Source: Escherichia phage P896. From it: a DNA stretch of 64,000 bases. Every line of letters begins with the position of its first letter. Position 1 is the first letter of the stretch. The translations under genes and the position numbers were made by a program. The stretch lies in the sequence record OL451225.1. One strand, written 5' to 3'. This document shows, one piece after another, positions 4,870 through 59,851 of this stretch. Under the pieces are notes generated by a model, which did not search any database, was not told the origin of the DNA, and saw only the letters and a list, made by a program, of their open reading frames with translations.

Positions 4870-5037
4870 TTATACTGTAGGTTTATCGTCTTTGTTCTTA
4901 CGCTTTTTTGATGGGATTTGTTCAGGGCCTTTATTGACAACTGCCCCGGAAGTGGTACCTGTTGTGATATTAGTTGGGTTTCCACCTGCATCACCTGCAA
5001 CCATATCTTCGTTGATAAAATCTTTGAATGTTTTCAT
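4870..5037 (-). CDS. Small protein (55 aa) with internal-protein-like N-terminus MKTFKDFINE
   Basis: Own translation; RBS GGGGG upstream; below the ORF-track length cutoff. Confidence 0.4.
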   Translation of the reverse strand: MKTFKDFINEDMVAGDAGGNPTNITTGTTSGAVVNKGPEQIPSKKRKNKDDKPTV

Positions 5038-5056: not shown

Positions 5057-5248
5057 TTATACAACAAAGATAGCTTTATCACCATTTGCATCAGTCACTT
5101 CATAAGTGTCTTCATGATACAACGGAATAATCCAGGTAACACCATCATCAGCGATAACATGGATTGCTTCTTGGTCTTGCGACACGATTTCATATTCTTC
5201 AAAAAGCTGGAAGACCGAAATCTTAGAGCCCGTACACATTGCACTCAT
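5057..5248 (-). CDS. Hypothetical protein (63 aa)
   Basis: ORF track. Confidence 0.4.
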   Translation of the reverse strand: MSAMCTGSKISVFQLFEEYEIVSQDQEAIHVIADDGVTWIIPLYHEDTYEVTDANGDKAIFVV

Positions 5249-5444
5249 ATTGTTCCCTTCTTTTAATCAATTGACGATGTGCCTTTTTAAGTTTACGAAT
5301 CTGACGTTTAGTCGGTCGCGCAACGTAAGCTTGTGTAGTTACTCGTCCAAAAACACCATACTTAGGCGAAGGAGTATCAATAAAGACTTCCCACTGGCAA
5401 GAGTAACTATATATTGCTTTAGAGAATTGGGTCAAAACAAACAT
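5223..5444 (-). CDS. Hypothetical basic protein (73 aa)
   Basis: ORF track; start in TAATATG junction copied from the upstream paralog junction. Confidence 0.45.
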   Translation of the reverse strand: MFVLTQFSKAIYSYSCQWEVFIDTPSPKYGVFGRVTTQAYVARPTKRQIRKLKKAHRQLIKRREQYECNVYGL

Positions 5445-5445
5445 A

Positions 5446-5805
5446 TTAACCTCGCTTCATGAAGGCATTAAAAATCTGGTCATCAATATCAGTAGGCGGT
5501 TCTTGAGCTTTGACCCAAGCCCCTTCCAGAATGTCATTTGCTTCAGTAGATATCATGACCCCAATTTCAGGGTTTCCGGTTATCCAGGCTGCACAATCGC
5601 GGACATTCTTTTTATCAAATGGATAACCACGATTATCTTCACAAGGCCCATTCATTGTCATAAATGAACGAGCCTTTATGATAACATCATCTTTAACGAT
5701 AATATAACCAATCGCCTGATTAAACCGTGGCTCACGAAATTCATAATGGGCATTACCATCATTATTGCTCGCCAGTTCAAAATTCAGAAAATTATAATAA
5801 CTCAT
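5446..5805 (-). CDS. Hypothetical protein (119 aa), paralog family ending DDQIFNAFMKRG
   Basis: C-terminal 13 aa and ~45 nt junction near-identical to 5807..6241. Confidence 0.6.
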   Translation of the reverse strand: MSYYNFLNFELASNNDGNAHYEFREPRFNQAIGYIIVKDDVIIKARSFMTMNGPCEDNRGYPFDKKNVRDCAAWITGNPEIGVMISTEANDILEGAWVKAQEPPTDIDDQIFNAFMKRG

Positions 5806-5806
5806 A

Positions 5807-6241
5807 TTAATCTCGCTTCATGAAAGCATTAAAAATCTGGTCATCAACTGAATATACAGGGGTTTCCAGAAGTTTCAAAAGACTGTTTTTGATGTACTTA
5901 CCCGGGATACCCTTAACAATACTGTCATTCAACTCATTATCAGGGTTGATGTCTTTAAATTCAAACCCGTCAAACTCAACCTTGTCAGGAATACCGTCAG
6001 CGAAAAAATAAACCAATTGGTGCATTGTATTGCGCGAAAATAATTTAGACTTGACCGCAATAAGTTCTTGCCAATGGTTTAATTCTTTGTTAAGAAGTTT
6101 ATGAGCAAACGTAATTCTATTATCACTATCAACAAGAAAATAACCCAGGTATTGAATCTCGTCGCTCCAAAACACCCTGTATGCCTGCGCATTTGGATTT
6201 TTACAACGAAGTTTTTTGATAACCAAATTTCTGTTAATCAT
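5807..6241 (-). CDS. Hypothetical protein (144 aa), paralog family ending DDQIFNAFMKRD
   Basis: Start set at MINRNL (TAAAATG coupling to sp); shared C-terminus with 5446..5805. Confidence 0.55.
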   Translation of the reverse strand: MINRNLVIKKLRCKNPNAQAYRVFWSDEIQYLGYFLVDSDNRITFAHKLLNKELNHWQELIAVKSKLFSRNTMHQLVYFFADGIPDKVEFDGFEFKDINPDNELNDSIVKGIPGKYIKNSLLKLLETPVYSVDDQIFNAFMKRD

Positions 6242-6242
6242 T

Positions 6243-6536
6243 TTATTCACCTGTAACCCATTGAACAATTTTGCTATTGTCAAATGAAGCATCGCAATAC
6301 AGAATATAGTTATACTGCATAACGTCACCAGAAGACAATTGGTCAGATACTTCTTTAACCATATCAGGGCGGTCACGTTTGGTTATGTTCATGATATCAG
6401 CACGAATCTGGGTTTCAACTTCAGATTGCTCTGCTGTCATAGACCATTCACAAAGGTTTTTATCAAGCCCAGCAGTAACTGGAGCTGTACCACATGATGC
6501 TACGGTAAGAATTGCTGCAATAATTAACTTTTTCAT
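6243..6536 (-). CDS. sp: Spackle (Sp) periplasmic superinfection-exclusion protein
   Basis: 97 aa; signal peptide; LCEWSMTA...VETQI...DIMNI.KRDRP...MQYNY.LYCD matches recalled T4 Sp (61.3). Confidence 0.8.
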   Translation of the reverse strand: MKKLIIAAILTVASCGTAPVTAGLDKNLCEWSMTAEQSEVETQIRADIMNITKRDRPDMVKEVSDQLSSGDVMQYNYILYCDASFDNSKIVQWVTGE

Positions 6537-6600
6537 AATGTTCTCCTCAGTAGTTGATATGGATAATATACTGCATTATCCCTTTGATGTAAACTGTTAT
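6537..6600 (-). promoter_or_regulatory. T4-type early promoter + conserved leader (family A)
   Basis: Minus strand GTTTACA...TATATTATCC...ACTACTGAGGAGAA-ATG. Confidence 0.6.
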
Positions 6601-6800
6601 TTTTCGTTAGAACGATAATCACATTCAAAAACTTTATTGTCATTAACAAAGGCTTTAACCAGCGCATTATTCACTTCTGCATACTGCACTGTAACCCATT
6701 CAATCATATTTTTGTCACTGACATCCAGCGCGGTTTCTTTGGTAAACATATTACCATTTTCAAACCAACCAATAAACAATACGTTCTCTAATTTATACAT
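6597..6800 (-). CDS. dmd: Dmd antitoxin (discriminator of mRNA degradation, anti-RnlA/LsoA)
   Basis: 67 aa; GWFENGNMFTKE...QYAEVNNALVKAF.ND.KV.E.D matches recalled T4 Dmd (61.5). Confidence 0.8.
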   Translation of the reverse strand: MYKLENVLFIGWFENGNMFTKETALDVSDKNMIEWVTVQYAEVNNALVKAFVNDNKVFECDYRSNEK

Positions 6801-7118
6801 TTAGATTTCCTCACAAAACGCCCAGGCAGCGTGATAAACTGTTGCGCCTTTAGTATCATTTAAACAAACCACGTCAACAGGTGCAATCACACGATAAAGA
6901 CGGGGTTCTCCTCCATATGAGCGAGCTGCTCTTCCTGCATAGATACGCGCCAAACCAATATCTTCAGTAAAAAACACACGCCCTAAATTTTTCTTACGCC
7001 CAACTTCTGACAGAACACCAGTTGCATCAGGAGGACAAAGCATATTTTGGATTCCAGCATTAGAGCTTGACCCATGATAATAAACTTTGTATTCTGCCTT
7101 GCAATCAATGGTTTTCAT
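6801..7118 (-). CDS. Small protein (105 aa) with diphtheria-toxin/PARP-like NAD-binding motif (putative ADP-ribosyltransferase-fold)
   Basis: VYYHGSSS motif (cf. SYHGT of DT, GYHGT of exotoxin A) followed by aromatic-x9-Y (FFTEDIGLARIY); preceded by family A promoter. Confidence 0.45.
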   Translation of the reverse strand: MKTIDCKAEYKVYYHGSSSNAGIQNMLCPPDATGVLSEVGRKKNLGRVFFTEDIGLARIYAGRAARSYGGEPRLYRVIAPVDVVCLNDTKGATVYHAAWAFCEEI

Positions 7119-7186
7119 TTTATTCTCCAGTAGTTGATAGGGTCATTATAACATAAGAAAAAGGGGCTGTAAGCCCCTTTGTTCAC
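7119..7186 (-). promoter_or_regulatory. Terminator hairpin + early promoter/leader (family A variant)
   Basis: GGGGCT-GTAA-AGCCCC hairpin then CAGTAGTTGATAGGG leader. Confidence 0.5.
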
Positions 7187-7489
7187 TTACGCCAACTCAT
7201 AGTTGTGCATAGTCAGACAACGAATTTTCCCAGTAGTTGGGTGCATAACAGTCACACTAATTGTGTAATCATCGCACACGTTAACAAAAGGTTCAGCGAT
7301 AACATATACTGCCCCGCCTGCAAGCAGATACTCACGAAGAGAGCTGCGAACAGATGAAGGTTGAACATCGCTTTTGAGCTTTATTAATTTACCAGTTTGA
7401 ATGCCTGATGCGATAAGAGCAGCACAGTTTTCATCACGGCGAGCGAATTGTCCAAAATAGTAACGATTCATATCGGTTTGATTAAACAT
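7187..7489 (-). CDS. Hypothetical protein (100 aa)
   Basis: ORF track; family B promoter upstream. Confidence 0.55.
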   Translation of the reverse strand: MFNQTDMNRYYFGQFARRDENCAALIASGIQTGKLIKLKSDVQPSSVRSSLREYLLAGGAVYVIAEPFVNVCDDYTISVTVMHPTTGKIRCLTMHNYELA

Positions 7490-9350: not shown

Positions 9351-9679
9351 CTCTTTTTCATTTTAATTTTATCAATTTCATCTTGTATTTGCATTGTAAC
9401 ACACTTTTCTACATGCACAGCAAGCTCCGCTTTGCGGTCTTCAGAAGGGGTGCCGAAATCAACTGAAACTTTTCCAGATGGTTCAATTTTAATTCCGGTT
9501 ACGTACACAATGTGACTGGACCCATCAGGGAGTGATAACAGAATTTCCTGCCGTACAGTTCCCATGGATTGCCGGATAATCTCCAAACTTTTTTCGTAGT
9601 AAGGTACAGAAGGAGCCTTAGCTCCCTCCGCATCTTTCTCGAAATTATCTAAATCAGATAAATCGATATCATTCATCAA
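9335..9679 (-). CDS. 40: gp40 head vertex assembly chaperone homolog
   Basis: 114 aa ORF between 41 and uvsX; call by synteny and size. Confidence 0.6.
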   Translation of the reverse strand: MMNDIDLSDLDNFEKDAEGAKAPSVPYYEKSLEIIRQSMGTVRQEILLSLPDGSSHIVYVTGIKIEPSGKVSVDFGTPSEDRKAELAVHVEKCVTMQIQDEIDKIKMKKRWWKW

Positions 9680-10847
9680 GGTCTTCCATCATATCTAAAT
9701 CGTTTTCGATATCTGCCGCAGACGGTTTTGTCTTACCTTCAGGAGCAGTGTATTTTTCAACCTTGGAGGCAATAAGCGCATCAACTTCGGCATCAACAAC
9801 AGCATTGCTATCGATTGCACCCAGTTGGTAATGGCGTTTGATTGCATCACGGAAAGGTTCGTGCTTGAACAGCGGGCCCCAGAATTCGGTGCAGTTAGTA
9901 TCTTTTGCGCGCCATGATTTTTCTTCGCGGACCATTTCACCGGTCTCAACATCAAGATATTCACGGTTATACCAACCAACTTTTGGTTTCACCACAAATC
10001 CGATTTCCATTGCCATATCAAGCAGGCCAGAATACGGGTCAATACCCCCATCGAATTTTACATCAATGAAGAATTTACTTTTCTCTTTGACCATACGAGA
10101 TTTTTCGGCGTTCAGAACAAATTGGAAGCCTTCAAGTTCTTTACCAGTTTCTTTAATCTGGCGTTTGCCGATAATGAATACGGTGTCCGCAGAATACATA
10201 ACACCTGTACCGCCGGTCATAACGGTTTTACTGTACATCTCAATCGTCTCGATTGTATGGTTAACCGCGACACAAGGAATATCCTTGATGCTAAAATACG
10301 GGGTAACAATACGGAACAGAGATTTCAGGGATTTGGCACGAGTCATATCACCAACGACTTTTTCGTTCATCGCATCTTCTGTTTCTTTTTTCGACGCCAT
10401 GTTACCGATTGAGTCAATAAAAATAATGACTTTTTCACCACGCTCAATTGCTTCAAGCTGGTTAACCATATCAACTTTCAATTGTTCAACCGACTGGATT
10501 GGTGTATGGATAACACGTTCCGGGTCAACTTTCATTGCACGAAGATATGCTTCTGTGATACCAAATTCTGAATCATAGAACAAACAGATTGCATCGGGGT
10601 ATTTGTTCATATATGCAGAGACCATCGTTAAACCCATATTGGATTTAAAGTGTTTTGACGGACCAGCAAAAATAGTCAAACCTGACTGCATACCACCATC
10701 TAGTGCACCGCTGATTGCAATGTTCAGCATCGGGATTTTTGTACGAACTACATCTTTACCATTAAAGAACTTGGACTTGGTAAGAGTCGCGGTCATTTTG
10801 GATGTAGAAGCTTTAATCAAACGGGATTTCAAATCTGCAATAGACAT
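9669..10847 (-). CDS. uvsX: UvsX recombinase (RecA-like)
   Basis: 392 aa; RecA-fold Walker A FAGPSKHFKS; synteny 40-uvsX. Confidence 0.93.
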   Translation of the reverse strand: MSIADLKSRLIKASTSKMTATLTKSKFFNGKDVVRTKIPMLNIAISGALDGGMQSGLTIFAGPSKHFKSNMGLTMVSAYMNKYPDAICLFYDSEFGITEAYLRAMKVDPERVIHTPIQSVEQLKVDMVNQLEAIERGEKVIIFIDSIGNMASKKETEDAMNEKVVGDMTRAKSLKSLFRIVTPYFSIKDIPCVAVNHTIETIEMYSKTVMTGGTGVMYSADTVFIIGKRQIKETGKELEGFQFVLNAEKSRMVKEKSKFFIDVKFDGGIDPYSGLLDMAMEIGFVVKPKVGWYNREYLDVETGEMVREEKSWRAKDTNCTEFWGPLFKHEPFRDAIKRHYQLGAIDSNAVVDAEVDALIASKVEKYTAPEGKTKPSAADIENDLDMMEDLDE

Positions 10848-28780: not shown

Positions 28781-28966
28781 TTATTTTTCAAATGTGCTAT
28801 AGAACGAACGATGCAACCGTTTAAATTGACGAATCATCTTTTTGGTAGGACGAGTATACAATCCTACACAGGTGGCCATAAACTGGTCAGTAGGACTTCC
28901 TTTGATAAGAAGTTTCCAGACCTTGTCACCGTTTAACTTTTCGGTATAGACTAATTTAGTTTTCAT
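28781..28966 (-). CDS. Hypothetical protein (61 aa)
   Basis: ORF track. Confidence 0.45.
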   Translation of the reverse strand: MKTKLVYTEKLNGDKVWKLLIKGSPTDQFMATCVGLYTRPTKKMIRQFKRLHRSFYSTFEK

Positions 28967-44934: not shown

Positions 44935-45234
44935 TTAGAAAGAACCAGAACCTTTAATTGTGTTCTGGCGACCTTTATTTTCCAATTCAGAATGGTCAAT
45001 TTCATATGCTTGTGCCACGCCAAAAGCCTTTTTAACTTTAGCTAAAGAACCTTTAGATGTAACAATATTAAAAGTATTACCTTTGGTAAAATCAACCAAA
45101 TCCACTTGTACACCTTGTTTACCGAGGCTTGCGACAATAGCATCAACATATTGTTGGTCTAAATTGCCCTGGACTCCAATTTGGAATGCTTTAGGAGCTT
45201 TGGCTTCAGTAATAAATTCTTGATAAGTTTTCAT
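44935..45234 (-). CDS. Internal head protein (capsid-targeting sequence), 99 aa
   Basis: N-terminus MKTYQEFITEA = T4 internal-protein CTS. Confidence 0.7.
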   Translation of the reverse strand: MKTYQEFITEAKAPKAFQIGVQGNLDQQYVDAIVASLGKQGVQVDLVDFTKGNTFNIVTSKGSLAKVKKAFGVAQAYEIDHSELENKGRQNTIKGSGSF

Positions 45235-45291
45235 TTTATTCTCTCTAAGTTGATGGGATAATTATGCACTATCCCATCAAAAAGTAAACAG
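45235..45291 (-). promoter_or_regulatory. T4-type early promoter + leader (family A variant)
   Basis: Minus GTTTACTTTTTGATGGGATAGTGCATAATTATCCCATCAACTTAGAGAGAATAAAATG. Confidence 0.55.
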
Positions 45292-45555
45292 TTATGCTTT
45301 ACCGCCAGAAACAATACCAAAGGTCTCAAAGTCCCATTCAATATCGTCAACATCAACTTTCTTACCAGCAACCACGAATGCGATTTCGCGACGTTTTGCA
45401 TAGGTGACAATTTCTTTACCATCGCCGCCAAAGAAAGAATAACCATTGCGCTTCATGGTGCCAAAGTCTTCAGCATCACCAGCGAATGCGCGGACTTTAA
45501 AGGAACCAGCAGGAGCTTTGGCAGATTCAGTAATAAATTCTTGATAAGTTTTCAT
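45292..45555 (-). CDS. Internal head protein (CTS), ~87 aa
   Basis: Start at MKTYQEFITES; shares DAEDF..KRNGYSF motif with 59552..59851. Confidence 0.65.
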   Translation of the reverse strand: MKTYQEFITESAKAPAGSFKVRAFAGDAEDFGTMKRNGYSFFGGDGKEIVTYAKRREIAFVVAGKKVDVDDIEWDFETFGIVSGGKA

Positions 45556-45603
45556 TTTATATTCCATTGTTTGGTTGATAAAATCATTATACAACCTTTT
45601 TAG

Positions 45604-46079: not shown

Positions 46080-46382
46080 TTATTTACCTTTAATTGCTTT
46101 AGCTGCTTCGATAGCCGCTTGCTGAAGGTCATCCATAGACATGCCGAACTTAGAAGCAAAGTTATCAATTTTCTTTTCGACAGAATTCAAAGGCTTGGCC
46201 TGTTTACCTTCGTTAGCGCCAGGGAGAGCTAGAATACGCTCTTTGTCAATATAAAGGCTTACAAGTTTCTTACGGTCTTTATCTGGTAAATCATGAAATG
46301 AATGGGCCTTTTTATTTACAGCGGCTTCTAATTTACCTGCACTTACGCGCGCTTCGGTGATAAATTCTTTATACGTTTTCAT
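46080..46382 (-). CDS. ipII: Internal protein II-like (CTS-bearing), 100 aa
   Basis: [23 protein letters not shown] with gp21-type L-x-E cleavage site; between denV and e. Confidence 0.7.
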
Positions 46383-47361: not shown

Positions 47362-47590
47362 CGTCACGTTCCCAAGATTTTTTAAAGATTTCGGCCATAA
47401 TAATTTCAACGCGTGTTTCTGTTGATGGGCTTTCACTATCAGTTATTTGCACCATATAGTCAGAAATCGGGCAGAACATATCCAAGTCAGTTTCTAAATC
47501 ATCTTTGATTTTCTCTTCTGATGTACCTGTATCATAGGAATACAGATAAGAATCACATGACTCGGATTTAATATAAATTGCAATACTCAT
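47354..47590 (-). CDS. Hypothetical acidic protein (78 aa)
   Basis: ORF track. Confidence 0.5.
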   Translation of the reverse strand: MSIAIYIKSESCDSYLYSYDTGTSEEKIKDDLETDLDMFCPISDYMVQITDSESPSTETRVEIIMAEIFKKSWERDDE

Positions 47591-48171
47591 TTACGGCATT
47601 CCTCAATAAAAGAGTTTAATGTATTTTTCTTGGCGATATCATCATATACCTTTTTAACTTTAGAAATACGAAAAGGTACTTCAATAGCCATAGTCCATAA
47701 AAATGATGCAATAAGTCCAACAGCAGCAGAAGAAATGCACGCGCCCATTACAGCCACAGGTGCTTCATTTTTACCCGTCAAGAAAAACCACAGGATTGGT
47801 AAAAATAAGATTCCAGCCCAGGCATAAAACCTGGAACAAATTAACTTATCAAATTCATCTTTCCAGGTACGAAATCCATATTTCTTGCTATAAGAAATTA
47901 ATGGGTCGGGTGTCTGTTCTTTGAGTGGTTCCGGTTGATACCCATTAACAATATATCCCATTTTATATTCCTTAATTAAAAGCTCTTTCACATGACGATT
48001 GCATCGCGACCAATCAACATTTTCCACCTTGATTCCTTCATCACCATCGTCAAGGTTCGCCCAATATTTTTTGGTAATCATAAATTCATCTCTTGATACA
48101 ATTATACCTGCATTTTCTGCCCGACGGATGAAGTTTACATCAACACCCATACAACCAGGTTCATACAGCAT
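47587..48171 (-). CDS. Membrane protein (194 aa) with C-terminal FIEECRK tail
   Basis: C-terminal TM helices; shares terminal FI.EC[RK] motif with 52421/52761/53095 ORFs. Confidence 0.55.
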   Translation of the reverse strand: MLYEPGCMGVDVNFIRRAENAGIIVSRDEFMITKKYWANLDDGDEGIKVENVDWSRCNRHVKELLIKEYKMGYIVNGYQPEPLKEQTPDPLISYSKKYGFRTWKDEFDKLICSRFYAWAGILFLPILWFFLTGKNEAPVAVMGACISSAAVGLIASFLWTMAIEVPFRISKVKKVYDDIAKKNTLNSFIEECRK

Positions 48172-48857
48172 TACCAGCCCTCCATAGGAAATTCCAGATA
48201 TACTTGAGCATTAACGCGGATTTCATTGGTGATTTTATTAACGCGGTCAGTTTTACGAGATACGCGACCAAACCAGCGCCAACCATTACCAACCGTTTTT
48301 GTTCCAGTATGCCAGGTCTGCCAGTTGAATTCACACAACGTGCGGTCAGGAGCTTCTTGAACTAAAAGTTCACCCGCCTTGATTTTTTCCAGAACTTCCT
48401 GATGCCACTGGCGATAGATAAGTTCGCCATCAGGAATCTGACTGAATTCTGAAGTTCCCAGAGCAAAATGAGTAGGGCAAACAGAAGCGTTAACCAGACC
48501 CAGGATGTGTTCAGAATGGTAACGAGGGTTATCATAATCAGGTTGTCCTGCTGTAATAAAATGTTGTCCTGCTGGAATATCTGGACGTGGTACATCATCA
48601 TGGTGATACCCAGGGATAGCAGGATACCAACCAGGCATCAACATATGGACGCGAGAGTCAAATACAACCTGGTCAGTGTTCCAATCATCCGGCAGGTTCA
48701 TGATGAAGCTGCGAGTAATAGGACCGCCATTATCAAAAGCGAAGGCTAACGAGCTGTTGAAGAACATAGTTTCGTTTTTGATTTTATCGTTAGAAATTTT
48801 ACCAGCAAATTGACCAACTTCACGCATTTGACTATTAAAAGTTTTTGAGCTATTCAT
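48171..48857 (-). CDS. Hypothetical protein (~228 aa)
   Basis: Start set at MNSSKTFNS with GAGGAAA RBS; His/Asp-rich segment GYHHDD. Confidence 0.55.
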   Translation of the reverse strand: MNSSKTFNSQMREVGQFAGKISNDKIKNETMFFNSSLAFAFDNGGPITRSFIMNLPDDWNTDQVVFDSRVHMLMPGWYPAIPGYHHDDVPRPDIPAGQHFITAGQPDYDNPRYHSEHILGLVNASVCPTHFALGTSEFSQIPDGELIYRQWHQEVLEKIKAGELLVQEAPDRTLCEFNWQTWHTGTKTVGNGWRWFGRVSRKTDRVNKITNEIRVNAQVYLEFPMEGW

Positions 48858-48867
48858 GATATTTTCC

Positions 48868-49104
48868 TCAGTATTCTTCATCATATTCAAAGTCTTCATC
48901 AAACTCGGGTTCCAGAGAAATTTCTTCTTCCGGGTGGAATTCACAAGGGAAGTATTCCACTTCACCACAATCGGCGTCATAGGACTGGAAATCAATTTGG
49001 ATTACGGTTTCGGATACAACAATAACTTCAGCAACCAAGTCACCTGCAATTTCCATTCCAACTTTAACATCTTTAGCTTTGATAGTATTCATTTTATTCT
49101 CCAA
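48868..49104 (-). CDS. Hypothetical acidic protein (78 aa)
   Basis: ORF track; family B promoter upstream. Confidence 0.5.
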   Translation of the reverse strand: MENKMNTIKAKDVKVGMEIAGDLVAEVIVVSETVIQIDFQSYDADCGEVEYFPCEFHPEEEISLEPEFDEDFEYDEEY

Positions 49105-49158
49105 TTTGGTAACTCAGTATGGAATCATTATGCACTGACTCCATACTGATGTACACAC
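49105..49158 (-). promoter_or_regulatory. T4-type early promoter + leader (family B)
   Basis: Minus GTGTACATCAGTATGGAGTCAGTGCATAATGATTCCATACTGAGTTACCAAATTGGAGAAT. Confidence 0.6.
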
Positions 49159-50118
49159 TTATTTTGTGAAAGGACGAATTAAATGTTGGTTAGCCTTAAA
49201 GCGTTTAACATAGTCTTCGCGACCCAGGGTGTTGTACATATTAACCACTTCCTGGTAATGTTCCCAGGCATACTCGCGGAACCATCCAGAAGTAATGGAG
49301 GTACAGACTTTTTCCAGCGCAATATGGAAGCTCACAGATGGAGAGATATTGAACTCATTAGGAACCTGCGAACGCTCCAGAGCGAGCACACATGCTTCTT
49401 CATAAACCCCTGCCAGTTTAATAATCTCAGGGAGTGCTTCAAATTTTTCACGCGAGGTCATGACTTCTGAATCATCCTTCATATAAAACTTATATGCAGG
49501 CTTATCAGCAAGCGCCACAGCCTCGTGGATGGAGTCATGGTCAAGGGTGTAGATTGTATCATTAAAGAAAGTTTTCTTGCCCACGTCTAGTTTAGGGTGA
49601 CTGTATGACAGTGTTTCTGCCTGACGCTGCAGCATGATTTTCTGCAGTTCATCATTAAGAACAATACCCTTATTGCGAAGGTAATTAATATGACTCATGG
49701 TCTTCAGGAAGAATGGATTGTTCTTCAGGTAACGATGAGACAATTTAATCGCCAGACAAATATCAGGCGTCGCCCAATAGAAACCTGTAAGACGGTCTTT
49801 CTTAATATGATTTTCAGCGTATTTCAAGAGACGATAACTTGAGGTGAAATCTTCGTCTTGAAGCTCACCAGTAATTTCTCGTACGTTGGTCAGGGCACGG
49901 ACAATATAAGCTTCAAAATAGGTTTCTTTGCCATTGTACATACATTTAAAAGCTTGGACATCAGGGTTATCCACAGGAACATGAGCACCGAACATACGTG
50001 CTTTAAAGTGGTTCCAAGAACCCTGGTCAGCGATAAAGTCCCAATCAGAGTTTTCAATTTTCTGACTTTCAATCAGACCAGCGTTATGTAATGCACGAGA
50101 ACCAATAACTAACATCAT
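49159..50118 (-). CDS. Hypothetical protein (319 aa)
   Basis: Long ORF, no motif recognised. Confidence 0.65.
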   Translation of the reverse strand: MMLVIGSRALHNAGLIESQKIENSDWDFIADQGSWNHFKARMFGAHVPVDNPDVQAFKCMYNGKETYFEAYIVRALTNVREITGELQDEDFTSSYRLLKYAENHIKKDRLTGFYWATPDICLAIKLSHRYLKNNPFFLKTMSHINYLRNKGIVLNDELQKIMLQRQAETLSYSHPKLDVGKKTFFNDTIYTLDHDSIHEAVALADKPAYKFYMKDDSEVMTSREKFEALPEIIKLAGVYEEACVLALERSQVPNEFNISPSVSFHIALEKVCTSITSGWFREYAWEHYQEVVNMYNTLGREDYVKRFKANQHLIRPFTK

Positions 50119-50309
50119 AATATTTTCCTCATTAGTAAAGACGAGTTACTTCATATTTTCCAAGTGCCGATTTTTTCGCTTCAATTCGTGAGGCAGCAAG
50201 ATTGGCGGCCTCTAGTGAAGAAAATTGAACCACTTGAGAAGTATTCTGTCTTACTCCACCTTGCGGGTGAGTGACAAAAACAATAAGAACATTATACATA
50301 ATATTTTCC

Positions 50310-50510
50310 TCAAATAATACCGTATGCGTAAATATCTCTTTTAATGCAGGAAACTACTTCTTCCAGAGAATCACAAACACGTTCTGTGACGCCTGCGTAA
50401 TCACCACTGATGGTTACTTTAATGCCATCAGAAACTTCCTGGAGATTAACCTCCAGTTGGTTGACTTTGGCTTCGTTCAGAACTTTGATTAATTCGTTTG
50501 CGATAGACAT
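50310..50510 (-). CDS. Hypothetical protein (66 aa)
   Basis: ORF track. Confidence 0.45.
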   Translation of the reverse strand: MSIANELIKVLNEAKVNQLEVNLQEVSDGIKVTISGDYAGVTERVCDSLEEVVSCIKRDIYAYGII

Positions 50511-50574
50511 TTTTATTCTCCTGTTCTGATAACGTGATTGTCATCAGTTGATAGGAGTATAGTAACACAGTTTT

Positions 50575-50919
50575 TTAGACTTGTATACTGCTTCTACAAT
50601 ATTCTAAAAATAATTTATCGTTGTCTACCGTATCCCAACGACGCCAAGATGGATTCCAGACCAGAGCGTTGTCACCGCAATCATTGAGCTTAAAATGGTC
50701 GTAGTACATAGCTATATGTCTGGTTTCGTCACCAGAGAACCCCAGTATAGGCTCACCGTGAGTATGATACATATGATGATGCATTGAGAGGTCGCATTTG
50801 TAAAACATCTCACGTTTACCACGAACGAACAAGAAGGCTTGCCCATTCATATAGAATTCTTTATCTGTTTTCAAAAGATATTTGAATACCGAATCTTTAT
50901 GCATAATTCCTCCTACCAC
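50575..50919 (-). CDS. His-rich protein (114 aa), possible metal-binding
   Basis: HHHMYHTHGEPILGFSGD cluster. Confidence 0.5.
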   Translation of the reverse strand: MVGGIMHKDSVFKYLLKTDKEFYMNGQAFLFVRGKREMFYKCDLSMHHHMYHTHGEPILGFSGDETRHIAMYYDHFKLNDCGDNALVWNPSWRRWDTVDNDKLFLEYCRSSIQV

Positions 50920-50934
50920 ATCCTTGTGATTAAA

Positions 50935-51162
50935 TTATTTTCCTAACGAAATGCGAGTAGGTTTTTTACCGAAATATTCTTCATAGGAACCATCTAAACG
51001 ACCCGCTTTAGACCGACAATACGAATCATACTTTTTGTAATAAGCCAACTCGGTATTGTAACGTGGATGTCTATCAGCCATAATAATACTTAACGGCCAA
51101 CCTTTGGCGTAATCACGAAGACCATTTATTTTACGAATATATCTTTTCTTTAATTTTAACAT
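50935..51162 (-). CDS. Hypothetical basic protein (75 aa)
   Basis: ORF track. Confidence 0.45.
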   Translation of the reverse strand: MLKLKKRYIRKINGLRDYAKGWPLSIIMADRHPRYNTELAYYKKYDSYCRSKAGRLDGSYEEYFGKKPTRISLGK

Positions 51163-51389
51163 GAACTTGGGTACCAGATTTTACCATCGGCACTAGCAAC
51201 GAAGGTGCGACCAGCTTCTTCCCCATAACAAGAGCTGTTCAACCAGTCTTCAAGACGGACTTCGCCGTCATAATCATCAAGCTCAACACCAAAATCTTGA
51301 GCAGAAGCCATATCTTTTACTTTCTTATACAGTGCAGCCAGTTCAAGGGCGGCTTTTTCTAATTCAGCACGTTCAACAGCAGTAGTCAT
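51156..51389 (-). CDS. Hypothetical protein (77 aa)
   Basis: ORF track. Confidence 0.45.
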   Translation of the reverse strand: MTTAVERAELEKAALELAALYKKVKDMASAQDFGVELDDYDGEVRLEDWLNSSCYGEEAGRTFVASADGKIWYPSSC

Positions 51390-51398
51390 TTTATCACC

Positions 51399-51626
51399 TT
51401 AGCAAGACATAGAGGAGTTAAACCAGAAACCTTTACCATCTGGGATACCGTAATCACCACGAATCCAGTCATACTCTTCGTATTCTGGACAACCCGCAGG
51501 AATATATCGTTGAAGACTGTCAGCATACACATGAAAGTATTCACCAGTTTTATCGGCCAGTTGTTCACCTTCACAGATTAGTGCACGGATTTGGTCTTCA
51601 ATTTCTTTAACAGTTTTAGCAGTCAT
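51399..51626 (-). CDS. Small protein, W-x-S-S-x-x-C C-terminal family member 1 (75 aa)
   Basis: C-terminus GFWFNSSMSC. Confidence 0.55.
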   Translation of the reverse strand: MTAKTVKEIEDQIRALICEGEQLADKTGEYFHVYADSLQRYIPAGCPEYEEYDWIRGDYGIPDGKGFWFNSSMSC

Positions 51627-51635
51627 TTTATTTCC

Positions 51636-51833
51636 TTAGCATTCATAAGAGGAGGACACCCAGGAGCCACCCGTAATTGTAATACAGCCATTGTAAATCG
51701 TGATATGACGGTCCAGATGGTTTTCACCTTCGATATAGATATCAGCTTCTTCACGCTCTTCTTTACAAATCTGGATAACGTTTTCAATAGCTGCCGCGGC
51801 AGTACGGATTGCACAATCTAGTTCACGAGACAT
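51636..51833 (-). CDS. Small protein, W-V-S-S-S-x-x-C family member 2 (65 aa)
   Basis: C-terminus GGSWVSSSYEC. Confidence 0.55.
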   Translation of the reverse strand: MSRELDCAIRTAAAAIENVIQICKEEREEADIYIEGENHLDRHITIYNGCITITGGSWVSSSYEC

Positions 51834-51842
51834 AATAATTCC

Positions 51843-52124
51843 TTAACATTCAGCAGAAGAGGACACCCAACCACCATTTTCCAGGTCAGTTGTATAGTCA
51901 TGAGTATTAACAATAGCCCATTCAGGATGACCATGTTCTTCCCAATGAGCAAGGTCAGCTTTCAGGGCACCAGGAGAATAATAGTCACCGCCCATACCGC
52001 GAGCAGGGTATATATTAAAATGAGTCTCATATTTGTCTGCAATTTCCTCGGCACGACGAATAGCTTTATGGATGTCATTTACTGCGTTAGCCAGTTCTTT
52101 ATTTTTACGGTAATCATTCATCAT
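51843..52124 (-). CDS. Small protein, W-V-S-S-S-x-x-C family member 3 (93 aa)
   Basis: C-terminus NGGWVSSSAEC. Confidence 0.55.
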   Translation of the reverse strand: MMNDYRKNKELANAVNDIHKAIRRAEEIADKYETHFNIYPARGMGGDYYSPGALKADLAHWEEHGHPEWAIVNTHDYTTDLENGGWVSSSAEC

Positions 52125-52133
52125 AACGTTTCC

Positions 52134-52424
52134 TTAGCACATTGCCGAAGAGGAGACCCAAGCACCAACTGTAACGACACCGTTTTCAACTTCACCGCCG
52201 TTGTTTTCAATTTCATTTTTAAACCACTGGGAGCATTCATAACCGACAGGATAATATGTACGGCCCGAACCATAATCACCGGTACCAAATTGGATACCAT
52301 ATTCATCTGCGATTTCTTCACAGTGTTTTTCAATTTCAGAGGTCTTATTTAGAAGAGAATAGATAGCTTTTTCTGCAGATTTCTCATCATAATACTTGGG
52401 GATAGCAATTTCAATTTTATTCAT
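52134..52424 (-). CDS. Small protein, W-V-S-S-S-x-x-C family member 4 (96 aa)
   Basis: C-terminus VGAWVSSSAMC. Confidence 0.55.
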   Translation of the reverse strand: MNKIEIAIPKYYDEKSAEKAIYSLLNKTSEIEKHCEEIADEYGIQFGTGDYGSGRTYYPVGYECSQWFKNEIENNGGEVENGVVTVGAWVSSSAMC

Positions 52425-52774
52425 GATTTACATTCCTTAATAAAGGTTTCAAGTTCATTGCGTTTTGTTTTGTCTAGGAACTTATTATACTCAGCCATTG
52501 CTGAAGCATATCTCTTCCGACTAGGAGCATTCACGGCATTTGTGTGACAGATATCATACACAACAGGGATAAAATAAGACACAACAGCCGGAGCGATTAT
52601 CATAAAGAAGCCCATCTCAATAGGCATCACTCCCTCGATTGCAGCCATAACCGTGGTCATTACCAGGCCAACCAGGCCGCCAAGCATGGCGGTGACAATC
52701 CCTAATAATAAATTGGCACCAATATCATATTCAGCCAATTGATAAACATGTGATGCAAGACTAGGCCGTTCCAT
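52421..52774 (-). CDS. Membrane protein (~117 aa) with C-terminal ETFIKECKS
   Basis: Start at MERPSL with AGGAGG RBS; TM helices. Confidence 0.55.
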   Translation of the reverse strand: MERPSLASHVYQLAEYDIGANLLLGIVTAMLGGLVGLVMTTVMAAIEGVMPIEMGFFMIIAPAVVSYFIPVVYDICHTNAVNAPSRKRYASAMAEYNKFLDKTKRNELETFIKECKS

Positions 52775-53120
52775 TACGAACCTCCTTAATAAATTCTTCG
52801 GCGCATTTAATTTTGTGCTCTTCTTGTAGGGAAACACATTTTTGTTCCCACTCTTTAACTCGTCCACGATATCCTTTATTCATATGATTTTGATGCCACA
52901 CATTTATCAATACCATACACAGGACTGTAATAAAAGGAGCTGCAATTACTAGCGTCCAGGCGACTCCAACACTAATGATATTCATATCCCCACAAAGCAC
53001 CATCATTATAACCCCAACGATGCACATGGACAAAGCTCCAAATGGAGGCATAAGGTCTTTATCAATCTTGTCTGCGTATACAAATTTTTCTGGTTTACTT
53101 GGCAGATATAACGTTCGCAT
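52761..53120 (-). CDS. Membrane protein (~119 aa) with C-terminal EEFIKEVRNG
   Basis: Start at MRTLYL with AAGGGG RBS; TM helices. Confidence 0.55.
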   Translation of the reverse strand: MRTLYLPSKPEKFVYADKIDKDLMPPFGALSMCIVGVIMMVLCGDMNIISVGVAWTLVIAAPFITVLCMVLINVWHQNHMNKGYRGRVKEWEQKCVSLQEEHKIKCAEEFIKEVRNGTA

Positions 53121-53667
53121 TTTTAACCCCTTTAGCATATTCACGACATTCAGCAATAAAACGATTAAGCTTACGTTTCCGTTTACGACTCTCTAATGTG
53201 TACTCAGCCGCCAAATCAAGAAGCTCATCTTTATCATAATTTTTAATATCAGTATAAGTTGGGCGGCGGTCAACCATTCCAAAGTGGTCACCATTTTCCA
53301 ACATCAAATAACACACCAAATGGTCATCATCGTTCGCATTAATAAGTTGCCTATAATCATCTGGGTCATTTAACGCATACACGGAATAACTCAGCCCACC
53401 GAATTCCACTCGTTGAATACCTAGATTTACATCAATAATTTCCAAGGCATCTGCAAAAGAAAGGTCTTCAGCTAAAGCAAAAATAAAAGGCAATTTTGTA
53501 GTATCACCGCGGCTAGTTGTTCTTCTTAAGAAATCATTGGAATAACCCAAGTCACCGCGGATTCTATAAAGAACTGTGTTAGTTTCAGTGGCAAGACCAC
53601 TACCGCCAAACCAGTCTACATTTGATAGAAGGTCAGTATATAAGCTCATAATTTTCTCCTCTCCCAA
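53095..53667 (-). CDS. Hypothetical protein (190 aa) with C-terminal RFIAECREY
   Basis: ORF track; GGGGC-AAAG-CCCCC hairpin upstream. Confidence 0.55.
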   Translation of the reverse strand: MGEEKIMSLYTDLLSNVDWFGGSGLATETNTVLYRIRGDLGYSNDFLRRTTSRGDTTKLPFIFALAEDLSFADALEIIDVNLGIQRVEFGGLSYSVYALNDPDDYRQLINANDDDHLVCYLMLENGDHFGMVDRRPTYTDIKNYDKDELLDLAAEYTLESRKRKRKLNRFIAECREYAKGVKNANVISAK

Positions 53668-53692
53668 TTAGGGGGCAAAGCCCCCTTTTATC

Positions 53693-55181: not shown

Positions 55182-55625
55182 TTAAATTTCAAATTCTTTG
55201 CGGAAGTTGGAAGCATAAGACTGAACTGATGCTTTGTTGAATCCAAACTCACGCACAATCATATCAATAACAGCTCTGCGAGCAGCACCATTAGACATAT
55301 TAACAGTTTTGAACATATCATAGCATAAATCTTTGTTGCTCATACCGGAGCGTTTAGGTGCCTTACGTTCAGCTTTTGGTTCAGCTTTAGGAGTAGGTTT
55401 AACTTCTGGTTTAACCTGTCCATCATTCAGACCTTTAAAAATTTTACCTGCCAGAGTTGCCAGTTTAGCAGCTTCGCCACGAGTGATACCAAATACTGCC
55501 GGGTTAAATGAAATACCTTCAGCTGTCAGACGTTTGAAGAACATACGTGCTGCGGATTGTGCTTCAGCTTCAGAAGAGTTGTTTAATGCCAGTTTAACAT
55601 ACTTAACCAGTTTTGAAGTTTTCAT
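55182..55625 (-). CDS. Hypothetical protein (147 aa), shared C-terminal domain with 56078..56503
   Basis: C-terminus NGAARRAVIDMIVREFGFNKASVQSYASNFRKEFEI. Confidence 0.55.
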   Translation of the reverse strand: MKTSKLVKYVKLALNNSSEAEAQSAARMFFKRLTAEGISFNPAVFGITRGEAAKLATLAGKIFKGLNDGQVKPEVKPTPKAEPKAERKAPKRSGMSNKDLCYDMFKTVNMSNGAARRAVIDMIVREFGFNKASVQSYASNFRKEFEI

Positions 55626-56077: not shown

Positions 56078-56503
56078 TTATTTTTGAGCTTTGCGGAAGT
56101 TGGATGCATATGACTGAACAACAGTCTTTTTGATATCATGGGTGGTAACCAGAACATCAATCAGAGCGCGACGAGCTGCATTATCATTCATATCAATTTC
56201 TGCAAATGCCTGGAAGCAAATGTCACGAGCGTTACCAGATTTGGACTGGATTTTTTCTTCTTTAACTTCTTCAATTGGGAATTCAATCATTTCAGCTTGG
56301 ATTAATTCAATGATAGATTCTTTTGACTGTTTGGTGTTTACCTTCAGTTCAGAATTAAGGGACTTGGCGATGGCAACAATCTGGGTTGAAGTCAGATGAA
56401 TAAGTGCATCTTCACGAATGCAGATTTCACATACTTCGTCAGCAACCATTTTGTTAGTGATGCGGGTAACAGAGAATGCAGAGGTCAGGGTCAGGAAGTT
56501 CAT
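56078..56503 (-). CDS. Hypothetical protein (141 aa), shared C-terminal domain with 55182..55625
   Basis: C-terminus NDNAARRALIDVLVTTHDIKKTVVQSYASNFRKAQK. Confidence 0.55.
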   Translation of the reverse strand: MNFLTLTSAFSVTRITNKMVADEVCEICIREDALIHLTSTQIVAIAKSLNSELKVNTKQSKESIIELIQAEMIEFPIEEVKEEKIQSKSGNARDICFQAFAEIDMNDNAARRALIDVLVTTHDIKKTVVQSYASNFRKAQK

Positions 56504-59217: not shown

Positions 59218-59496
59218 CTAAATTTTTGTATATTGTCCAGCTTTAACTTTTTTCAGTTCACGAGGGCTTACCGCGTAAGTGAATGGAGCATTCCAGGAAG
59301 AACTGACTTTGTAACCTTTAGTCAACATCATTGCTGAAACTTTCTTGTTATCAGGACCGTTTTCGCCTTTAACAAGAAACAACTCAAATGCGCCCCCATC
59401 AACCGGTTTGGCCTTAACCATCAGATGTCCTTTCAGGTCTTCCAGCATATCCGGGTGACTAATTGATTCGTTAATAAATTCTTGATAAGTTTTCAT
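59218..59496 (-). CDS. Internal head protein (CTS), 92 aa
   Basis: N-terminus MKTYQEFINES. Confidence 0.65.
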   Translation of the reverse strand: MKTYQEFINESISHPDMLEDLKGHLMVKAKPVDGGAFELFLVKGENGPDNKKVSAMMLTKGYKVSSSWNAPFTYAVSPRELKKVKAGQYTKI

Positions 59497-59551: not shown

Positions 59552-59851
59552 TTACATTTTTGAACCACGAATTACACCATAAGCGGCGAAGTCGTCAGAA
59601 ATATCTTTAGGTGAGTTCTTACCAGTTTCAATGAAGGCAATGCTTGACTTCTGACTAAAAGAGGTAATTTTGTTATAGTTGGAGTCAAGGAAGGTATAAC
59701 CATTTTTGCGTAGCTGGTCAAAGTCTTCAGCGTCGCCTTTGCCTTTGAAGTCAACCCATTTGTAGGTGTTTTTCTTCTGAAGACCCAGAGGCCAGGTTTT
59801 TGCTTCTGCCAGGTAATTGTTTTCTACCAAAAATTCATGAAAAGTTTGCAT
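59552..59851 (-). CDS. Internal-protein-like (variant CTS MQTFHEFLVEN), 99 aa
   Basis: Shares DAEDFDQLRKNGYTF motif with 45292..45555. Confidence 0.55.
   Translation of the reverse strand: MQTFHEFLVENNYLAEAKTWPLGLQKKNTYKWVDFKGKGDAEDFDQLRKNGYTFLDSNYNKITSFSQKSSIAFIETGKNSPKDISDDFAAYGVIRGSKM

Follow-up and report, generated by a model that had tools for sequence, protein, structure and literature searches.

The e.2 to e.5 genes of phage P896 and their tails

The stretch analysed in our study, hereafter the window, comprises 64 000 nt of the genome of Escherichia phage P896 (OL451225.1), and the subject is four of its open reading frames (ORFs), A to D, the products of which end in similar short peptides. 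The region examined shares 96 % identity with the nearest genome, that of SP18, a Shigella phage (Gaprivervirus, Tevenvirinae), and carries every gene on the minus strand. A preliminary description had proposed that these ORFs share a C-terminal tag and belong to a pattern of neighbouring accessory genes sharing only their 3′ ends. Homology and gene order showed A, B and C to be the e.2, e.3 and e.4 genes of this Gaprivervirus and D to be its putative, divergent e.5. The tag is a real family, and it reflects paralogy and protein-level selection with an overlay of ribosome-binding sites (RBSs), rather than the sharing of 3′ ends only or recombination scars. The genes and their tail motifs are as follows.

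47587..48171, minus strand: ORF A, T4 e.2 orthologue, 194 amino acids, ending ...NSFIEECRK*
47593..47610, minus strand: tail motif of A, F-I-E-E-C-R, with F188, C192 and R193 of A
52421..52774, minus strand: ORF B, T4 e.3 orthologue, 117 amino acids, ending ...ETFIKECKS*
52427..52444, minus strand: tail motif of B, F-I-K-E-C-K
52761..53120, minus strand: ORF C, T4 e.4 orthologue, 119 amino acids, ending ...EEFIKEVRNGTA*
52776..52793, minus strand: tail motif of C, F-I-K-E-V-R, a weak member without Cys
53095..53649, minus strand: ORF D, in the e.5 slot, 184 amino acids from the ATG at 53649, soluble, ending ...RFIAECREYAKGVKNANVISAK*
53143..53160, minus strand: tail motif of D, F-I-A-E-C-R, followed by EYAK

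The motif FI.E[CV][RK] was found four times in approximately 347 000 six-frame codon positions, covering the window and the other 106 kb of SP18, and every match fell in A–D, 1–15 residues before the stop codon. In a Smith–Waterman comparison of the last 30 residues of 133 predicted window proteins, the pairs A–B, A–D and B–D ranked 4th, 5th and 16th among 8778 pairs (scores of 47, 44 and 34); scores of 33 and 38 marked the 99.9th and 99.99th percentiles of a null distribution built from internal segments. The pairs involving the tail of C scored 20–26, which is within the null range, and this tail alone is unexceptional; C is counted as a member because it is collinear with B over 84 residues (BLASTP, E=7e-6). 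Profile–profile comparison placed the C-termini in register in the best match of every pair of families (P=1.5e-6 to 2e-3), with the exception of D versus T4 e.5, where a mid-protein stretch matched best. The four ends stand as they were quoted, and the tag is significant and confined to neighbouring accessory genes. A chance resemblance or an artefact of composition might be argued from the post hoc definition of the motif and from the null-range scores of C, but its probability is negligible: there were no further matches in the six-frame scan, A–B and A–D score above the 99.99th percentile of the null distribution, and the retention of the motif by orthologues in five genera already refutes it.

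The identities of the ORFs were taken from annotation, gene order and BLASTP, backed by synteny and annotation in SP18, JS98, PhAPEC2 and T4 and by the PHROGs. ORF A matched the e.2 family over its full length (phrog_2203, E=1e-67, profile positions 1–166 of 166), gave BLASTP matches to e.2 of JS98, QL01, fPS-90, PhAPEC2 and Q7622 and, in the gene order of SP18, JS98 and PhAPEC2, lies between an RB69ORF132c-like gene and the ORF130c, nudE and e genes. ORF B matched phrog_2330 (E=8e-46), T4 e.3 (BLASTP, 5e-8 over 117 amino acids) and fPS-90 e.3 (3e-11), and is located directly downstream of the e.4 counterpart. ORF C, between the e.5 slot and e.3, matched phrog_2604 (E=1.6e-45) and T4 e.4 (BLASTP, 2e-14). 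ORF D occupies the e.5 slot, corresponds by gene order and annotation to gp131 of JS98 and matched phrog_8788 (E=1.6e-109). BLASTP of D against T4 e.5 returned no matches, the T4 e.5 family phrog_2607 was matched weakly (E=0.015, residues 81–112) and hhalign aligned 27 mid-protein columns of D and e.5 (P=9e-5, 59 %). The body of D would appear to be a very remote relative of T4 e.5. D also keeps the e.5 gene position and the e.5 form of the tail, F[IV]xECREY[AV]K. The start codon of D is most likely the ATG at 53649, which has a Shine–Dalgarno (SD) sequence, GGGAG, and agrees with the SP18 annotation, and less so the TTG at 53667, from which the ORF had first been drawn.

Hydropathy indicated that A, B and C each contain a pair of hydrophobic helices and end in a basic stretch, which agrees with the earlier prediction of three membrane proteins among the four. 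In A, a cytoplasmic N-terminal domain is followed by predicted transmembrane (TM) helices at ~47773–47835 and ~47677–47766 and by a basic tail helix; in B, the helices (~52637–52711 and ~52544–52612) precede a 40-residue basic tail; and in C, they lie at ~52989–53042 and ~52893–52979, before the tail. No TM helix was predicted in D (maximum 19-residue Kyte–Doolittle mean of 1.27). The genes e.2 to e.5 are contiguous in T4, whereas in the window approximately 4.2 kb of added small genes separate e.3 from e.2. Upstream of D lies one further feature.

53670..53686, no strand assigned: G+C-rich hairpin AGGGGGCAAAGCCCCCT, between e.6 and D, the 5′ limit of the tightly packed string of genes that begins D-C-B; no T-run follows it on the gene strand

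Scans of A–D and e.6 against Pfam, NCBIfam and PADLOC gave only noise-level matches. The T4 e.2 to e.5 PHROGs (2203/35263, 2330, 2604 and 2607/8788) are filed as separate families without a function, and precomputed Pfam labels, PF26896 and PF26873, are attached to e.2- and e.4-type proteins. Approximately 670 phage records match e.2, and 284 records match e.3. The genes themselves are known, whereas the tail shared across families and the paralogy of e.2, e.3 and e.4 appear to be unannotated in the libraries and papers searched. A full-text literature search on e.2 to e.5 revealed no functional study, and a T4 knock-down screen was the sole source of data.

Conservation of the tail and paralogy of e.2, e.3 and e.4

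The corresponding loci of nine other phages (SP18, JS98, QL01, ABTNLsp5, T4, fPS-90, PhAPEC2, 348Ecol098PP and Q7622) were compared with the window, and e.2, e.3, e.4 and e.5 were each found to keep the tail across five genera of T-even-like phages. Its core is hydrophobic-x-x-F-[IV]-x-x-C-R and, numbering from the Phe as 0, it reads hydrophobic(-3)-x-x-F-[IV]-x-[E/D]-C-[R/K] outside Q7622. The e.5 tails end ..KFVKECREYVK in T4, ..QFIMECREYVK in PhAPEC2 (Mosigvirus) and ..RFI[AT]ECREYAK in Dhaka- and Gaprivervirus, JS98 having the A form. Those of e.3 are ..EFVIDCRKIK, ..NFIKECRK and ..TFIKECKS, those of e.2 ..NFITECRKLK, ..RFITECRNLR and ..[SE]FIEECRK, and those of e.4 ..KFVKESRCKS.., ..EFVKEIRCKS.. 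and ..EFIKEVRNGTA. An alignment of 29 e.2 homologues, with 26–55 % identity to A, contained six invariant columns (M71, I163, P166, F188, C192 and R193), and three of these are the F, C and R of the tail. In nine loci of four genera, all 29 distinct tails had an acidic residue (E/D) at +3; none of the five tails of Q7622 (Kanagawavirus) has one, and it is replaced there by G, G, Q, M and N.

At least three further families of the same region carry the tail. These include an RB69ORF133c-like protein of 101 amino acids (PhAPEC2 9473–9778, ..NFIKECRGK; ..NLENFIKECRGK) and, in Q7622, a protein of 92 amino acids (..SLESFIQMCRG..). Also among them are the 234-amino-acid protein in the e.5 slot of Q7622, which ends ..DFVDQCRAN.., and a membrane protein of 106 amino acids encoded directly after e.2 in the same phage (locus 8001–8811), which ends ..DFVKGCRNGRN (..TDFVKGCRNGRN). 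The latter and e.2 have the same FVKGCRNGR[NS] end and the same junction to the next gene, and the gene for the 106-amino-acid protein appears to be a local duplicate of the hairpin-plus-tail module of e.2. Beyond these phages, a profile of the TM hairpin plus the tail retrieved 21 clusters among 1.84 billion representative proteins, 19 of which resemble these phage families, and a search of 5.8 billion proteins with the tail alone retrieved just fragments of the same families.

Similarity between the membrane proteins extends well beyond the tail. With enlarged alignments, hhalign aligned e.2 and e.3 over 70 columns (90 % probability, E=1.5e-6), a span that runs from the end of TM1 through the loop and TM2, past a juxtamembrane P-x-R stretch, to the tail. 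The e.3 and e.4 profiles aligned over 54 columns (P=6e-5), and these two families also have an N-terminal M-x-K-P-x-L in common. Direct comparison of e.2 and e.4 was weak. B also matched phrog_2203 (4.9e-4) and C matched phrog_2330 (1.1e-3), the PHROGs of the neighbouring families. Since the similarity of e.2 with e.3, and of B with C, reaches beyond the tail, A, B and C are diverged tandem paralogues, and profile comparison showed e.2, e.3 and e.4 to be built on one module, in which a membrane hairpin of two helices is followed by a basic juxtamembrane stretch and by the tail. The tail alone is present in the e.5 protein, here D, and in a handful of small or soluble proteins of related phages; D aligned with e.2 over 25 columns (E=7e-6) and with e.3 over 18 columns (E=2.5e-4), and has only these last 18–25 residues in common with A and B. 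The proposal that neighbouring genes share only their 3′ ends is hence accurate for D, but fails for A, B and C in view of the 84-residue collinearity of B with C and the 70 columns common to e.2 and e.3.

In T4, the junctions e.5|e.4 and e.4|e.3 are alike in DNA (TTTGTTAAGGAAT...ATGnnAAAGCCA), which suggests that tail, RBS and start codon were duplicated together as one unit. The e.5 gene probably acquired its tail when it fused with the 3′ end of a former paralogue, junction included. Events of this kind do occur, as is seen from natural hybrids, gene losses and a truncation. P0047 of phage vB_EcoM-UFV05 joins the N-terminus and TM1 of e.4, in register, to TM1, TM2 and the tail of e.2, and P0007 of phage OLB35 joins a fragment of e.3 to the tail of e.4. 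JS98 (locus 6472–7354), QL01 and ABTNLsp5 are without e.4, lost in the JS98 type between two similar junctions, and the D tail there runs into the start of e.3 as ..EVQNGTA*; 348Ecol098PP is without e.3. T4 itself has an e.2 (locus 2153–2461) cut to 102 amino acids, in which TM2 and the tail are gone; in the closely related fPS-90, e.2 is complete, at 162 amino acids.

The preliminary description had set A–D beside other gene groups of the window with similar ends. The WVSSSxxC ORFs, with the end W-x-x-S-S-x-x-C (51156–52424, minus strand), are five tandem small paralogues with a common N-terminal helix (..EEIADxY..), the gene junctions of which are repeats at the DNA level (46–51 nt at 71–76 % identity); homologues were found in JS98, PhAPEC2 and Q7622. 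The pair ending VQSYASNFRK (55182–55625 and 56078–56503, minus strand) have a 73-residue C-terminal domain in common (42 % identity, E=2e-17), a likeness that exceeds a mere terminal tag. The adjacent ORFs 5446–5805 and 5807–6292 (minus strand), ending ..DDQIFNAFMKR[GD], form the top tail–tail pair of the window (score of 65–66). Similar C-termini were also seen for 5223–5444 and 28781–28966 (minus strand; PTKRQIRKLKKAHRQL and PTKKMIRQFKRLHRSF, score of 49).

Selection on the peptide and the overlapping ribosome-binding sites

Whether the tails are alike as DNA or as protein was judged from 34 tail DNA contexts collected with a loose pattern, three of which were false matches with an in-frame stop. 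The Arg of the tail was encoded by CGT (9), AGA (8), AGG (4), CGA (4) and CGC (2), the Cys by TGT (13) and TGC (12), the Phe by TTT (28) and TTC (6), and the Ile or Val by ATT, ATC, GTT, GTA and GTG. The Arg is kept although exchange of CGN for AGR takes two substitutions. As synonymous codons vary freely at the conserved residues, conservation acts on the peptide, and codon comparison showed the tail to be maintained by selection at the amino-acid level. The best DNA match between two window tails was 23 nt at 83 % (A versus D), and there was no sign of recent DNA exchange among the tails. The comparison of nucleotide with protein alignments, which the preliminary description had put forward as its check, accordingly came out in favour of protein-level conservation.

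These results bear upon the possibility that the shared ends are scars of DNA recombination or cassette boundaries that mediate shuffling in a hyperplastic region, in the manner of promoter-early stem-loops (PeSLs). The region is indeed hyperplastic, as shown by the extra genes between e.3 and e.2 relative to T4, and the two hybrids, the missing e.3 of 348Ecol098PP, the common sequence of the two T4 junctions and the missing e.4 of JS98, QL01 and ABTNLsp5, where the junction lies inside two similar RBS and start regions (..K[GE]V[KQR]N..), all count in favour of this possibility. Nevertheless, no long or exact DNA repeat joins the tails of the window, the motif is part of the coding sequence and, in contrast to PeSLs (PMC4122927), lacks a promoter and a stem-loop, and its amino acids are kept across genera despite differing codons. 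Occasional recombination between paralogues follows from their similarity and is not its cause, and we regard an origin of the tails as scars as improbable.

A second constraint does act on the same nucleotides. Genes of the cluster overlap or abut, with an ATGA overlap after A and after B and overlaps of 14 nt between C and B and of 26 nt between D and C, so that the RBS of the next gene falls on the motif. In A, the GAG GAA codons (GAGGA, 47600–47604) form the SD of the next gene, the ATG of which is at 47590–47588. In B, AAGGA (52434–52438) is the SD of the first ORF of the W-x-x-S-S-x-x-C family, with its ATG at 52424–52422. In C, AAGGAGG (52781–52787) is the SD of B, and the ATG of B (52774–52772) lies within the N-G codons of C. 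The codons at +2/+3 of A, B and C (GAG GAA, AAG GAA and AAG GAG) thus sit 8–9 nt before the next ATG. The motif of D contains no SD; that of C, AAAGGGG (53127–53133), is nine codons further on, before the ATG at 53120. Across 31 tails, the SD was found in codons +2/+3 in 16, at or just past the Arg codon (AGG AAA, CGA GGA) in nine, and well downstream of the motif or not at all in the remaining six; in no case did it overlap the codon for F, I/V or C. In e.4 of T4 and PhAPEC2, with the tail FVKE[SI]RC, the R-C codons are cgATGc and contain the start codon of e.3. The RBS was shown to be a real second constraint, which accounts for the frequent K-E and E-E (AAGGAA, GAGGAA) and for most of the weak version of the motif in C.

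Translational coupling could in principle produce the whole of the shared end as a by-product, if each gene has to accommodate, at its 3′ end, the A/U-rich leader, SD and start codon of the overlapping gene downstream, since TTTATT-AAGGA-ATG.. in frame yields F-I-K-E-C. All four motifs end 2–22 nt before the next start codon, the x-E codons of A, B and C double as an SD, the displaced Cys of T4 and PhAPEC2 e.4 derives from the e.3 start, and the K-G codons of Q7622 (AAAGGA) retain an SD though the Glu is lost. The RBS fails, however, to explain D, the T4-type e.2 and e.3 tails and PhAPEC2 e.5, which have no SD at +2/+3 (GCT GAA in D; also ACT GAA, ATT GAT and ATG GAA) and still keep F, I/V, E/D, C and R. 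The SD occupies three different registers relative to the motif and never the conserved F, I/V and C codons, the Arg survives the change from CGN to AGR and the Cys and Phe survive synonymous change, and similarity reaches 10–60 residues upstream of the motif. As a sole cause, coupling is already largely refuted, and we consider it unlikely. Compared with overlapping-gene coupling in general, the tails are similar in their ATGA overlaps (A and B with their next genes), in the 14 and 26 nt overlaps and in the placing of an SD within the upstream tail, and they differ in that coupling explains just the +2/+3 codons, or the R codon in the T4 type, and not F, I/V, C or the upstream similarity. This double use of K-E and E-E, the identity of the genes with T4 e.2 to e.5 and the preservation of the motif across genera had all escaped the preliminary description.

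Possible role of the tail and comparison with known systems

Taken together, we favour the explanation that the tail is an old, protein-conserved end of duplicated e-genes, overlaid by RBSs and serving as a common docking or assembly helix, and we consider this explanation, as a whole, reasonably probable. The tails would be cytoplasmic according to the positive-inside rule, as basic C-termini follow the hairpin, and D has no signal peptide. They would also be helical, with L/M(-3), F(0), I/V(+1) and C(+4) forming one hydrophobic stripe; on a helical wheel these residues fall within 100 degrees, with R(+5) beside them. The AlphaFold2 (AF2) model of A has helices at 104–132 and 138–193, in which the tail continues TM2 (mean predicted local distance difference test score, pLDDT, of 59), and that of D ends in a long continuous helix (pLDDT of 43). 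Confidence was too low for fold searches, and the models were used for secondary structure only. Loss of the acidic residue at +3 in all five Q7622 paralogues, to differing residues, indicates that the requirement was lifted jointly and not by gene conversion, which points to a shared partner or to mutual contact. Most likely, the tail acts as a docking or assembly helix that would gather otherwise different proteins on the inner face of the membrane, through one common partner or through contact with one another.

Several observations weigh against this explanation. The docking partner is postulated, and the AF2 models are poor. The simultaneous loss of Glu at +3 was seen in one genome, Q7622, and in metagenomic relatives of unplaced lineage. 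One e.3/e.4-like subfamily has V or L in place of the Cys, which means that the thiol is dispensable in places. The tail of C by itself is statistically inseparable from an RBS artefact. Knock-downs of e.2 to e.6 in T4 were called 'Not Fit', with no fitness effect in the laboratory (PMC11879866, supplementary file 15), and any role would on this count be accessory or host-specific; with the truncation of T4's own e.2, it follows that any function is conditional or redundant.

Other roles were considered and set aside. A first impression from the sequence that e.6 might be a PspA-like partner was dropped, as no Pfam match and no PDB sequence match was found. A metal site built from one Cys in each of four tails was rejected, as genomes have anything from 2 to 4–5 tails with a Cys and one subfamily has V or L instead, and a C-terminal arrest peptide was rejected because the distance from motif to stop varies from 1 to 15 residues. 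A membrane-targeting amphipathic helix is unlikely for D, the tail of which has several acidic residues.

The genes e.2 to e.5 are among the many conserved T4 genes without a function, and three of them, e.2, e.3 and e.4, now form one duplicated module. The most conserved element is not the protein bodies but a tail of 10–12 residues, which is common to soluble proteins too; it offers a defined peptide and a few residues (F, C and R) to mutate. An overlapping RBS can mimic or reinforce a protein motif, which has to be controlled for when compact phage genomes are screened for shared tags. The general picture is unchanged by this finding, and we rate the result as ordinary to mildly interesting.

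Among the closest known parallels is the capsid targeting sequence (CTS) of the internal proteins, MKTYQEFI[AT]E, which is N-terminal, sends soluble proteins into the prohead and is cut after I-x-E by the prohead protease gp21. At least five window genes start with a CTS of the form MKT[YF][QK][ED]FI[TN]E (~45205–45567, 46353–46364, 59467–59478 and 5008–5019, minus strand), and in each related phage examined the e cluster has CTS-bearing genes on either side. The products of 45292–45567, which starts MKTYQEFITE, and 59552–59851 (minus strand) also have similar C-termini (score of 54). The idea that the tail is a CTS at the opposite, C-terminal end of the protein, directing e.x proteins to the prohead or marking gp21 cleavage, draws on the hydrophobic-x-x-F-I-x-E present in both, on the beginnings of the internal-protein genes of the window (MKTYQEFITE, MKTYQEFINE and MKTFKDFINE), which lie on both sides of the cluster, and on the CTS being the sole conserved part of otherwise diverse proteins (PMC3012670). 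It is very improbable: the motif is at the wrong terminus, 1–15 residues from the C-terminus and not after the Met, the C and R that are best conserved in the tail have no counterpart in the CTS, just four residues are in common, and three of the carriers are integral membrane proteins. In addition, the Glu of the cleavage site is gone from all five Q7622 tails, while the CTS of Q7622 is still MKTYNEFIAE or MKTYQEFLTE; identity with the CTS was largely rejected on this lack of covariation.

The CTS is an address tag to one destination, and both it and the tail are short conserved terminal peptides with F-I-x-E on unrelated, fast-evolving accessory proteins of the same hyperplastic part of the genome. 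The two differ in that the CTS has an invariant Glu at the N-terminus, whereas the tail is C-terminal, has a C-R core and mostly membrane carriers, and can dispense with the Glu in one genus. By this analogy, the F-[IV]-x-x-C-R tail could be a portable C-terminal address tag, a cytoplasmic or membrane counterpart of the CTS that recruits proteins to a single receptor protein or complex of the inner membrane, which we put forward only tentatively. Its cargo would be a changing set, the membrane proteins e.2, e.3 and e.4, the soluble e.5, the ORF133c-like protein and others, and new cargo would be gained when genes fuse with the conserved 3′ end and its junction.

PeSLs are boundary elements of the hyperplastic regions of T4-like phages that act at the DNA level (PMC2839356, PMC4122927). 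They resemble the tails as short sequences repeated at gene boundaries in the same type of region, tied to the gain, loss and replacement of genes, and differ in being intergenic and conserved as nucleotides, whereas the tail is coding and conserved as amino acids. No promoter or hairpin was seen at the window tails, which sets them apart from PeSLs.

The only matches of the hairpin-plus-tail profile that were not phage-like were P0127, probably a spurious repeat ORF, and P0132, a metagenomic protein of 350 amino acids with a signal peptide and four repeats of the form C-AAEW-x13-RK-AFITECR. Kinship of A–D with the PsiF repeat was not supported, as PF07769 had no match in them at E≤1. The repeats of P0132 are similar to the C-terminal 25 residues of B and D (profile E=1.5e-4 over the four repeats), whereas P0132 is a secreted two-cysteine repeat protein, the own PsiF_repeat match of which is below threshold (E=0.025), and its likeness to the tails is probably convergent.

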